Shown here: piece after piece, positions 4,898 to 50,602 of the stretch
Layout of the letters: each line of letters begins with the position of its first letter
Position numbering within the stretch: the stretch's first letter is position 1
Source of the DNA: Opitutales bacterium
Lineage (GTDB): Bacteria; Verrucomicrobiota; Verrucomicrobiia; Opitutales; PNEW01
Length of the DNA stretch: 64,000 nucleotides
Assembly: GCA_963692525.1 (NCBI GenBank)
Contig: OY829953.1
Span: forward strand, 4,420,720-4,484,719
Direction of reading: 5' to 3'
Notes under the pieces: generated by a model
Told to the model about the DNA's origin: nothing
The model's input: the letters and a program-made list of their open reading frames with translations, nothing else
Database searches by the model: none
Program-made: the position numbers and the translations under genes

Positions 4898-5008
4898 TTT
4901 GTCATTGCGAGTCACAACGCGACGAAGCAATCCAGGGGACTGAACTTACGCAATAGACAGCCTCCTGGATCGCCGCAGTCGGCTTCGCCTTCTTCGCGAG
5001 GACAAAAG
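4898..5008. repeat. Hairpin element of the 'gtcattgcgag / caatccagg' family (short form)
   Basis: Left arm 'ttgtcattgcgagtcacaacgcgacgaagcaatccagggg', loop of about 26 nt, right arm 'ctggatcgccgcagtcggcttcgccttcttcgcgaggacaa'. Confidence 0.7.
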
Positions 5009-10074: not shown

Positions 10075-10116
10075 GGGGAGAATCGATTAATATGTTATAA
10101 TTTAGCTTCTTCTACC

Positions 10117-10366
10117 TTTTCGTCTTCGTCCGCATCTGCGTCAGTGTCTCTTTGTCATTGCGAGGGAGGCTATCAGCCGACCGCGGCAATCCAGGGGGAT
10201 GTCTGTTGTGTAATTACAGTCCCTAGATATTAGAGTTCACTCTAAGCTGGACGAATCCTCAATGGAAAGATCTGAGTTGTGCTTGGCAATTTAAGACACA
10301 ATGACTATTCGCCTGGATTGCCACGTCGCGTTGCTCCTCGCAATGACAATTGGGACGAAGACGAAG
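10117..10366. repeat. Nested palindrome: 'acgaagacgaag' outer arms around a 200-bp 'gtcattgcgag / caatccagg' element (X arm + ... Y arm -)
   Basis: Outer arms are 'cgtcttcgtcc' (10121-10131) and 'ggacgaagacgaag' (10353-10366). Inner arms are 10151-10203 and 10301-10350. The same element is inverted at 38491-38722. Confidence 0.8.
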
Positions 10367-10389
10367 ATTATTATGAATCAATATTATCC

Positions 10390-11404: not shown

Positions 11405-11538
11405 TTTGTCATCGCGAGGCTGATTGTCAGCCGTGGCGATCCAGGGGAATATCGGACGCATATTGTAAGCCCCCTGGAATGGAAGATGTCGCTACGCTCG
11501 GTAGCGGCAGTCGGCCACGCCTCCTTCGCAATGACAAG
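11405..11538. repeat. Hairpin element of the 'gtcatcgcgag / cgatccagg' family carrying a 25-nt module insertion
   Basis: Same element as 50311-50421, but with 'ggaagatgtcgctacgctcggtagc' (11481-11505) inserted in the right arm. Confidence 0.8.
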
Positions 11539-17000: not shown

Positions 17001-17418
17001 GTGCTTAGCCATAAAAAGTTAGCCACAAGAGACATGAGAGGCACAAGATTAAATTATTTCAGTAGAGCGGTCCAACATCTTTCATTCCAGAGGCAGTCAT
17101 TGTGATTACGAATACTAGTCTTTGCACTAGAACATGGGTAACTTAATATATAGTGAAGACAGGCAAACGTCTACTGAACGAAGTTTTACATCCCGGGACT
17201 GTGGTTACGCAACAGACATTCCCCTGGAGTGGAAGATGTCGCTGCGCTCGGTAGCTTCGTTGTTTCACTCCTCGCAATGACAATAGTGGGGCGGGCTGCC
17301 TGGCTCTCCGACTTGAAAGATGTCGTTCCGCTATTGCGGAACTCGGAACTGGTCCTCAGGCCTTCCGGCCATTTGGCTTTCTCGCCATCTGGATGTCAGG
17401 CCTTCCGGCTTTCTATTC
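17001..17418. repeat. Composite of repeat modules
   Basis: 'tagccacaagag..aggcacaag' words (17001-17048); a half 'caatccagg/gcaatgac' arm with an inserted 'ggaagatgtcgctgcgctcggtagc' (17212-17285); a hairpin module (17312-17352); 'ccttccggctttc' words (17353-17418). Confidence 0.7.
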
Positions 17419-38464: not shown

Positions 38465-38790
38465 CTTATTCGTTTTCGTGTTTTGTCACTATTGTCATTG
38501 CGAGGAGTGAAACGACGAAGCAATCCAGGCGAATAGTCATTTAACTTACGAATACCAGTCGCTGCTCAGATTTTCCAATGTGGGTTCGATGAACAAATTA
38601 TTGTATATTGAAAATCGGCATTCGTACTCCAGAGTGTAGCTTTACATGCAAGGATTGTGATAATGCAACTGACATCCCCCTGGATTGCCGCGGTCAGCTG
38701 ATAGCCTCCCTCGCAATGACAAGTGAGCATCATGTATCAATCCGGTCTTCCGGTTTTCCTTCTTTCTGACCTTCTGGAATTCCGGCTTTC
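38465..38790. repeat. 232-bp 'gtcattgcgag / caatccagg' element (Y arm + ... X arm -) flanked by word arrays
   Basis: Arms at 38491-38540 and 38671-38722. The rc of 38671-38722 matches 10151-10203 at 51 of 53 nt. 'ccggtcttccggttttcc..ccggctttc' words at 38731-38790. Confidence 0.8.
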
Positions 38791-38799
38791 TATCCCAAT

Positions 38800-50285: not shown

Positions 50286-50602
50286 GATTTACGATTGTCG
50301 TTTGATTCTATTTGTCATCGCGAGGCTGCTTGTCAGCCGTGGCGATCCAGGGGAATATCGGACGCATATTGTTAGCCCCCTGGATTGCCGCAGTCGGCTT
50401 CGCCTCCTTCGCAATGACAAGAGAGAATGCAGGATACATGTTGTAAGATTCAAGATTATCCCTAGCGGTTGCCACTTTTTTTTATGACCACATACTCGCA
50501 TTTCCGCATTCACGCTTGTCCGCTTTTTCGCATTTCCCTTTTTGACATTTTGACCTTTCTTGCCGGCCATAGCCTTGGCGACGGCTGGTGACTTTTTGAC
50601 CC
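50286..50602. repeat. Composite: word arrays + 111-bp 'gtcatcgcgag / caatccagg' hairpin element + TTTTGAC arrays
   Basis: The element at 50311-50421 is the uninterrupted version of 11405-11538. 'ggccatagccttggcgacggctgg' at 50565-50588. TTTTGAC words at 50538-50556 and 50590-50602. Confidence 0.8.

Follow-up and report, generated by a model that had tools for sequence, protein, structure and literature searches.

The window analysed here is a 64,000-nt stretch (G000:C1:4420720-4484719) of the 4.49-Mb, 45% G+C single-contig genome of an Opitutales bacterium (G000). It contains two similar gene-less elements, each located between convergent ORFs. Copy A (198 bp, 10152..10349, plus strand) lies between the genes of a DAO-type oxidoreductase and a DHDPS-family protein, and copy B (231 bp, 38492..38722, minus strand) lies between two cupin genes. 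Strands are given in the sense of a relic of a small nuclease gene, ssn, which both copies carry. Copy A was delimited by its paired termini (TTGTCATTGCGAGG / CCTCGCAATGACAA), and copy B by alignment and its paired termini. These boundaries bear out the original prediction that one structured element recurs at 10.2 kb and, inverted, at 38.6 kb.

We aligned positions 10131-10370 (plus strand) with 38471-38742 (minus strand), and found that the first conserved arm (10151-10203) is identical at 51 of 53 positions, as had been claimed. The second arm (10301-10350), for which ~42 identities had been estimated, is identical at 44 of 50. The centre (10204-10300), described earlier as diverged, is identical at 57 of 96 aligned positions (59%), with an additional 34-35-nt indel. 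The similarity ends sharply, exactly at TTGTCATT... and ...AATGACAA, and the flanks outside these ends are unrelated (4/19 and 8/20 identical). Further out, copy A is enclosed by an inverted repeat of 13 bp that is composed of heptamer words (TTCGTCTTCGTCC / GGACGAAGACGAA, 10119-10131 and 10353-10365). Arrays of CTTCGTC-type words also flank an ssn cassette at genome position 4214812 and one in G003 (L170). In the sister genome G001, heptamer-word arrays flank a different element at the site orthologous to copy A.

The 5' arm of copy A (10152..10195, plus strand) is a forward unit resembling the published SRM hairpin. It reads TT-GTC-ATTGC-[GAGG GAGGCTATCAGCCGACCGCG G]-GCAAT-C-CAGG, is identical to the copy B arm at 43 of 44 positions, and is closed in the centroid fold by the stem ATTGC/GCAAT. 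The arm is followed by a non-coding module, termed the R-half (10196..10249, plus strand), which is present ~22 times in the genome (R-HMM match at genome 4430910-4430961, E=5.8e-14). Next come the relic of the ssn 3' end and the 3' UTR-like sequence ACAATGACTATTCGCC (10250..10311, plus strand), in which codons 10251-10304 read TNPQWKDLSCAWQFKTQ*. The 3' arm (10312..10349; 32/38 identical to copy B) is an SRM-like unit running forward on the minus strand. Copy B has the same order, with a forward 5' arm (38679..38722, minus strand, from the alignment with copy A), an R-half joined to a ~34-nt 'C' module (38591..38678, minus strand; R-HMM match at genome 4459351-4459402, E=1e-11), and a frameshifted ssn relic (SNPHWK / ..LSSDWYS*) with 3' UTR (38530..38590, minus strand; L-HMM match at genome 4459244-4459307). 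Comparison of the arms places its 3' arm at 38492..38529, forward on the plus strand, with the variable segment AGTGAAACGACGAA.

Pairing between the two arms of one element is restricted to the terminal 14 nt and the GCAATCCAGG block, as predicted, because the 14-20 nt between these blocks differ from arm to arm. In copy A, the two variable segments are GAGGCTATCAGCCGACCGCG and AGCAACGCGACGTG. A mini-hairpin had been expected inside the resulting internal loop, and one of the variable segments indeed contains it (GGCT...AGCC).

Arm-pair elements in the window and the genome

With up to two mismatches, the terminal 14-mer TTGTCATTGCGAGG occurs 10 times in the window, where 0.62 occurrences are expected; therefore the window contains six elements, not two. 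The other four are a 132-bp arm pair without an ssn relic but with a nested ~25-nt module (11406..11537), a 109-bp arm pair (50312..50420), a degenerate arm pair of ~107 bp recognised by its terminal 14-mer matches (4899..5005), and a half element with a single terminal arm (17091..17283). The half element consists of a truncated L-half (the second half of the centre, containing the relic), the C module, the R-half and an arm with a nested module (HMM matches at genome 4437810-4437946).

The genome-wide copy count that the original prediction had called for gave 59 exact and 58 one-mismatch termini. By our own arithmetic, ~1.4 would be expected by chance against this total of 117. Forty-two head-to-head pairs of termini form elements of 90-461 bp. 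Their layout is modular: a terminal block is followed by a variable segment of one of several types, then by GCAATCCAGG or a version of it with a ~25-nt insert, and finally by the loop. In all 40 parsed pairs, one arm carries a different variable segment from the other, which explains the unpaired internal loop noticed in copies A and B. It is possible that the arms of one element never match since perfect long palindromes are perhaps not tolerated. Across the 40 parsed elements, segments with an AGCCG core sit opposite segments of the AGCAACGCGACG type or the CCCGCA..TGCGGG type.

The ~25-nt module (CTACCGAG[CGCAGCG]ACATCTTCCATT and its complement) replaces GCAATCC by GCTACCGAG...CATTCC in ~15 arms. 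In the window it is found at 11482-11506 and 17231-17255, and it also occurs in arms of gene-bearing cassettes of G000 and G003. It behaves like a separately nested mini-element. A literature search for the arm sequence returned unrelated primer matches alone.

The ssn gene and its relics

We built HMMs from the two halves of the centre ('L' and 'R') and ran them over G000, which gave 24 L copies and 22 R copies. About 60 nt of the centre of each copy correspond to the last ~14 codons of ssn (NPxWKDLSGDWYS*) and its 3' UTR. The L-HMM matches the 3' ends of intact ssn genes at E=2e-16 to 3e-23, and copies A and B at 7e-15 and 2.3e-15. By tblastn, NPQWKDLSCAW was found at 10254-10286 in copy A, fragments were found at 38604-38549 in copy B, and C-terminal relics (NPHWKDLSGDWYS) at no fewer than 12 loci. 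Copy A reads ..TNPQWKDLSCAW.. where intact genes have ..MNPHWKDLSGDWYS*. In this one genome, ~21 relics of the ssn 3' end lie at separate loci.

An alignment of 17 elements, together with the copies of relatives, forms a decay series that runs from intact genes through genes with stops or frameshifts, a 44-codon stump and 14-23-codon stumps to arm pairs with a ~30-nt loop. Copies A and B belong among the 14-23-codon stumps. In G003, full-length ssn copies with stop codons are present together with a 44-codon stump. The R-half and C (~50-85 nt) are unrelated to ssn; they are common to ~20 gene-less copies and absent from the gene-bearing cassettes. In the family alignment the optional C module, which copy A lacks, accounts for the 34-nt indel between A and B, and no short ORF with a conserved frame was found in it. 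Two origins of the R-half were considered and rejected. Neither an ssn 5' end nor a mirrored ssn 3' end gave a significant result: local alignments scored no higher than shuffled sequences, and the R-HMM matched 12 arm-proximal nt only.

Since part of the centre is the 3' end of ssn, we regard copies A and B as gene-less, MITE-like derivatives of a gene-bearing element. In our judgement, they are probably non-autonomous and decayed descendants of an 'arm - ssn - arm' cassette encoding a GIY-YIG protein of the Ssn type (site-specific single-strand DNA nuclease). The gene-less form appears to have multiplied after losing the gene, because ~20 copies share one architecture with different later deletions.

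Eight PF01541 (GIY-YIG) matches were found in G000, and three of them lie inside the three longest arm pairs. Two of these pairs (genome 4214812-4215257 and 857681-858140) contain intact ORFs of 97 aa, at 4214905-4215198 and 857761-858051, and the third pair (genome 1577474-1577934) contains a frameshifted copy. A full cassette measures 446-461 bp and comprises a 5' arm, an AT-rich promoter-like leader, the 97-codon gene, an 18-nt 3' UTR and an inverted 3' arm. The protein is a single domain (Pfam GIY-YIG over residues 5-77, E=5.5e-14; no other domain). By tblastn, it is 45.5% identical over residues 7-94 (E=2e-17) to the product of a single N. gonorrhoeae locus, a value to be set beside the blastp threshold of E<1e-10 used by Chenal et al. 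for SsnA homologues. Four canonical NTS motifs lie within 400 nt of the gonococcal locus, and from this context we infer that it is ssnA.

Residues Y8, Y19 and E66, as well as R29, H33 and N85, are invariant in 15 homologues; the first three correspond to the catalytic Y6, Y17 and E64 of N. meningitidis SsnA (PMC11893778). Among the intact ssn copies dN/dS is 0.11-0.21, and the gene is under purifying selection. The sequence of the protein fits the Ssn family (cd10448-type single-domain GIY-YIG), which makes it a putative nuclease. NCBIfam had no informative family for it, a PDB search gave only a weak match to UPF0213 1zg2, and a phage collection contained no homologue. Three other small GIY-YIG genes (80-82 aa) of different subfamilies are present at G000:C1:2255378-2255590, 3427338-3427550 and 3433142-3433354. 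Each is surrounded by long repeats of its own, such as directly oriented copies of CCGCCAGGCGAAGGCTGCGCGCCATAGCTCGAAGAGCGAAGGCGGGCATTTCG on either side, and additional nuclease-repeat pairs may be present here.

The N. meningitidis enzyme SsnA has 94 aa and a single GIY-YIG domain, and its substrate is reported to be single-stranded DNA, not RNA (Chenal et al. 2025, Nat Commun 16:2388, PMC11893778). It recognises the NTS hairpin repeat (CGTCATTCCCGCGMAVGCGGGAATCYRG) only when this is single-stranded DNA, and cleaves a few nt upstream; cutting depends above all on the three nt preceding the palindrome, and binding on the C that follows it (PMC11893778). Genes of this family are typically flanked by inverted repeats, and the authors liken the architecture to an insertion sequence (PMC11893778).

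The hairpin within each arm

The arms share the frame GTC | ATTGC ... GCAAT | C CAGG, to be compared with GTC-ATTCCCGC...GCGGGAAT-C of NTS. GTC before the stem and C after it are present in every arm class seen. The units measure 26-70 nt (median 36), and their variable loop of 15-35 nt holds small nested hairpins. The published SRM pattern, HGTCWYN(0-2)YYVSBRHN(0-5)WNVSBRGN(0-2)RNCYNB, recovers the NTS control as well as the sequences flanking Citromicrobium ssn genes. It matched none of the arms (0 matches in the window; 16 in G000 vs 12-14 in simulated genomes), because their loop is 15-35 nt long. By their frame, then, the arms are a putative long-loop variant of the SRM hairpin. Other Ssn paralogues come with different stems in the same frame, namely GTC-ATTCT..AGAAT-C, GTC-ACCCCGGC..GCCGGGGT-C and GTC-ATTCCGGG..CCCGGAAT-C. 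Arms of the type GTCATTCTGAGCGCAGCGAAGAATCC bracket a sister Ssn clade (49-58% identical; loci L185, L187 and L189 of G184 and G322), and their stem ATTCT/AGAAT is doubly compensated relative to ATTGC/GCAAT.

Covariation, a check proposed with the original prediction, gave different answers for the two possible stems. Within the arms of G000, position 8 covaries with its partner (54 T-A, 14 C-G and 5 others; 68/73 Watson-Crick), a count resting on few independent events because the 14 C-G arms, with ATCGC/GCGAT in place of ATTGC/GCAAT, are one sublineage. From arm to arm, the same position shows an uncompensated C/T mismatch in 15 of 40 elements. What has been conserved is thus the hairpin inside each arm and not the long stem between the two arms. 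By analogy with NTS, this hairpin is a candidate recognition unit in single-stranded DNA. The folding energy of the within-arm variants of copies A and B is no better than that of shuffled sequences (z = -0.7 to +0.2), with the closing stem present in the centroid folds; variants with mini-hairpins reach z = -1.6 and -2.2, and NTS reaches z = -5.5.

Homologues of ssn enclosed by arms of the same class were also found in four Opitutales genomes (G001, G003, G015 and G184), in a Thiobacillus MAG and in an unclassified 1.1-Mb MAG, whose protein is 60% identical. Inverted arms flank ssn three times in G000, and also in G001, G003, G015, G184, G045 and the Thiobacillus MAG; in G184 a complete arm pair stands on either side of the homologue. 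The arms of copies A and B enclose no more than an ssn relic. Searched with an exact two-block pattern, the long-loop class was found on at least 116 contigs from many phyla. The matches listed include Alpha-, Beta- and Gammaproteobacteria, Patescibacteria, Spirochaetota, Planctomycetota, Omnitrophota, Nitrospinota, Actinomycetota, Bacteroidota, Bacillota and others. On locus L119 of a Candidatus Paceibacterota MAG, a long-loop arm (TTGTCATTGCGAGGTACTCCGTCGCAATCCAGG) lies ~25 nt from a canonical NTS-type unit (TTGTCATTCCCGCGTAGGCGGGAATCCAG) in the same intergenic stretch.

Among 301 Verrucomicrobiota genomes the arm pattern was found in nine Opitutales genomes only, and a reversed-pattern control over the Verrucomicrobiota genomes gave zero matches. 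Of these nine genomes, G000, G184 and G322 have a close ssn homologue. The association of arms with ssn is strong but not absolute, because G012 (same order, 100% complete) carries 41 exact arms and no close ssn homologue (best GIY-YIG match E=8e-5), and five further Opitutales genomes with 1-6 arms likewise have no close ssn homologue. The association between SRM and the gene in general is also reported as not absolute (PMC11893778).

The least probable explanation we weighed is that the elements are structured RNAs (small RNAs, hairpins serving as terminator or insulator, or 3' structures that stabilise an mRNA), transcribed from the convergent gene ends and selected for the long stem. The setting of both copies between convergent genes agrees with this, and their folds are far more stable than those of shuffled sequences (z = -8.4 and -4.6). 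However, a strong fold is what any DNA palindrome gives. The suggestion of an RNA selected for its stem, part of the original prediction, was not sustained: the arm-to-arm stem is the one with uncompensated mismatches and unlike variable segments, the centre varies by whole modules and holds a decayed coding relic, Rfam gave no match at gathering score in the whole window and only a chance snoRNA at E up to 10 in the element, and a terminator scan was negative, with no terminator-like T-tract. The covariation within the arms, the lack of an Rfam match and the lack of a terminator signature thus disfavour an RNA. The presence of the arm sequence in many phyla leads to the same conclusion, and it therefore points to a variant of the system described in 2025 and not to an RNA gene.

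Two further explanations keep the elements as mobile DNA. It is very unlikely that they are REP/REPIN-type repeats mobilised by RAYT, an IS200/IS605-like Y1 transposase, with the GIY-YIG gene as an incidental passenger. Inverted doublets of hairpin units without target duplications do recall REPINs (PMC3116915), and G000 has six Y1_Tnp (PF01797) matches, three of which are RAYT-like ORFs of ~330 aa (1502732-1503802, 806650-807630 and 1073514-1074539); a single arm lies 45 nt upstream of the start of one of them (1502777-1503802). Yet none of the six Y1 genes is bracketed by arms on both sides, whereas arms enclose the GIY-YIG gene at three loci of G000 and in a further six genomes across phyla, and the relics in the gene-less copies derive from ssn, not from Y1. 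Marginally less improbable, but still very unlikely, is that independent tiny mobile hairpins, comparable to the small dispersed repeats of cyanobacteria, piled up in each other without any functional link to the nuclease gene. The arms are indeed mosaic, and the ~25-nt module and the CCCGCA..TGCGGG mini-hairpins are present or absent at fixed points. Such hairpins would explain the variable inserts, but not the conserved GTC-stem-C frame shared with NTS or the repeated bracketing of ssn in distant phyla. Rather than competing with the cassette, tiny nested hairpins would add a layer to it.

Turnover, proposed movement and known systems

We compared the window with the sister genome G001, which has ~92% nucleotide identity in the flanking genes. 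Copies A and B are both absent from the orthologous sites, and at both sites G001 carries a different repeat within similar heptamer-word flanks. This alternative repeat is the same at both sites of contig G001:C2 (GGTGGAACGCGCTGTCCC(T)AGCGCG ... GCTAGGGA.CAGCCCGCTCCACC; orthologues of window 10079-10353 and 38480-38793, L002 and L014), and thus the two loci swapped the same pair of element types. The 11.4-kb element was kept in G001, and the 50.3-kb element is missing there. These comparisons show turnover of elements between the sister genomes. A clean filled-versus-empty site was sought in G001 and not found; the exact boundaries are unreadable there because the intergenic regions were replaced wholesale. 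With a different repeat at both sites of G001, movement of this particular unit is an inference rather than an observation.

No target-site duplications were found: flanking direct repeats are lacking in 30 of 42 elements and measure just 1-2 nt in the others. The flanks show only a weak mirror symmetry of pyrimidine-rich and purine-rich sequence. The MITE-like reading of the original prediction holds for a dispersed family with sharp inverted ends, gene-bearing versions of 446-461 bp, ~20 gene-less copies with shared relics, and occupancy that differs between sister genomes. It does not hold for an anonymous element, since the arms are variants of hairpin repeats recognised by Ssn and part of the centre is an ssn relic; nor does it extend to target-site duplications. 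As to the observations that had been named beforehand as refuting the prediction, compensatory changes are present within the arms, target-site duplications are absent, and Rfam has no matching family.

The following mechanism can be proposed. The intact cassettes (genome 857,681-858,140 and 4,214,812-4,215,257) would supply Ssn in trans, and Ssn would bind each arm once the DNA is single-stranded. It would then nick a few nt outside the element end, with one cut at the 5' boundary per strand because each strand has one forward arm. Repair or recombination induced by the nick among the many arm copies could spread and homogenise the arms, and could also carry the gene and its relics from one hairpin to another, leaving no target-site duplication. 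Since recombination would homogenise the arms, they would stay conserved while the useless centre drifts. The step from arms that resemble NTS and bracket ssn to an Ssn that would cut here and drive the spread is taken by analogy with the meningococcal enzyme.

A bolder proposal, which we advance tentatively and hold to be somewhat doubtful, is that arm-ssn-arm is a self-propagating element. A GIY-YIG nuclease gene would 'home' into the tips of the hairpins that its product recognises, and the gene-less 200-bp copies would be its MITE-like offspring. Such movement was only hypothesised by Chenal et al. (PMC11893778). If the proposal is true, the ~21 relic loci and the mismatched, recipient-type arms of the gene-bearing cassettes would be its first footprint, and the published motif would have missed a large SRM class, namely the pan-phylum GTCATTGCGAG...GCAATCC arm.

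The analysis assigns two structured look-alikes to a recently described nuclease-plus-repeat system and may extend that system in three ways. It adds a candidate class of recognition hairpins, GTCATTGCGAG...GCAATCCAGG, that spans many phyla and escapes the published search pattern; it reveals many decayed gene-less copies in one genome, the kind of trace that a cassette would leave if it moved as insertion sequences do; and, through covariation, it identifies the hairpin within each arm rather than the long foldback as the selected structure. In genome annotations, many spurious short ORFs and 'palindromic repeats' can be traced to these arms. For single-strand DNA tools, every pairing of an arm class with its cognate Ssn offers a candidate new specificity.

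Among known systems, NTS/SRM with Ssn is alike in that inverted hairpin repeats enclose a short gene for a single-domain GIY-YIG protein (97 aa here, 94 aa in N. meningitidis), in the frame GTC, palindromic stem, C(C/T)(A/G)G, and in the many solitary intergenic copies. Unlike the published pattern, whose loop is 0-5 nt, the arms described here have a 5-bp stem and a loop of 15-35 nt with nested mini-hairpins, and the units mostly form inverted pairs, which make a foldback of 90-460 bp. Gene-less derivatives that keep ssn relics are not mentioned in the main text of Chenal et al. (PMC11893778). REPIN/RAYT systems (Bertels & Rainey 2011, PMC3116915) share inverted hairpin doublets, a mostly intergenic location, the lack of target-site duplication, and an enzyme gene in single or low copy flanked by repeats thought to be its substrate; they differ in that the enzyme here is a GIY-YIG nuclease and not a Y1 HUH transposase, and the Y1 genes are unbracketed.

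MITEs, which are deletion derivatives of insertion sequences and non-autonomous, likewise keep their ends while the interior is deleted or decayed, share terminal inverted repeats with a gene-bearing element of the same genome, and occur as many copies of one internal deletion lineage (here R-half plus L-half). In contrast to MITEs, the elements described here make no target-site duplications, their 'parent' encodes a nuclease and not a known transposase, and their transposition is hypothetical. The repeats SDR1-8 of Nostoc, which Elhai and colleagues are said to have described in 2008, are reportedly modules of ~20-30 nt that sit at set positions inside other hairpin repeats. In this respect the arm inserts resemble them, whereas the 200-bp unit and its link to a nuclease gene do not.
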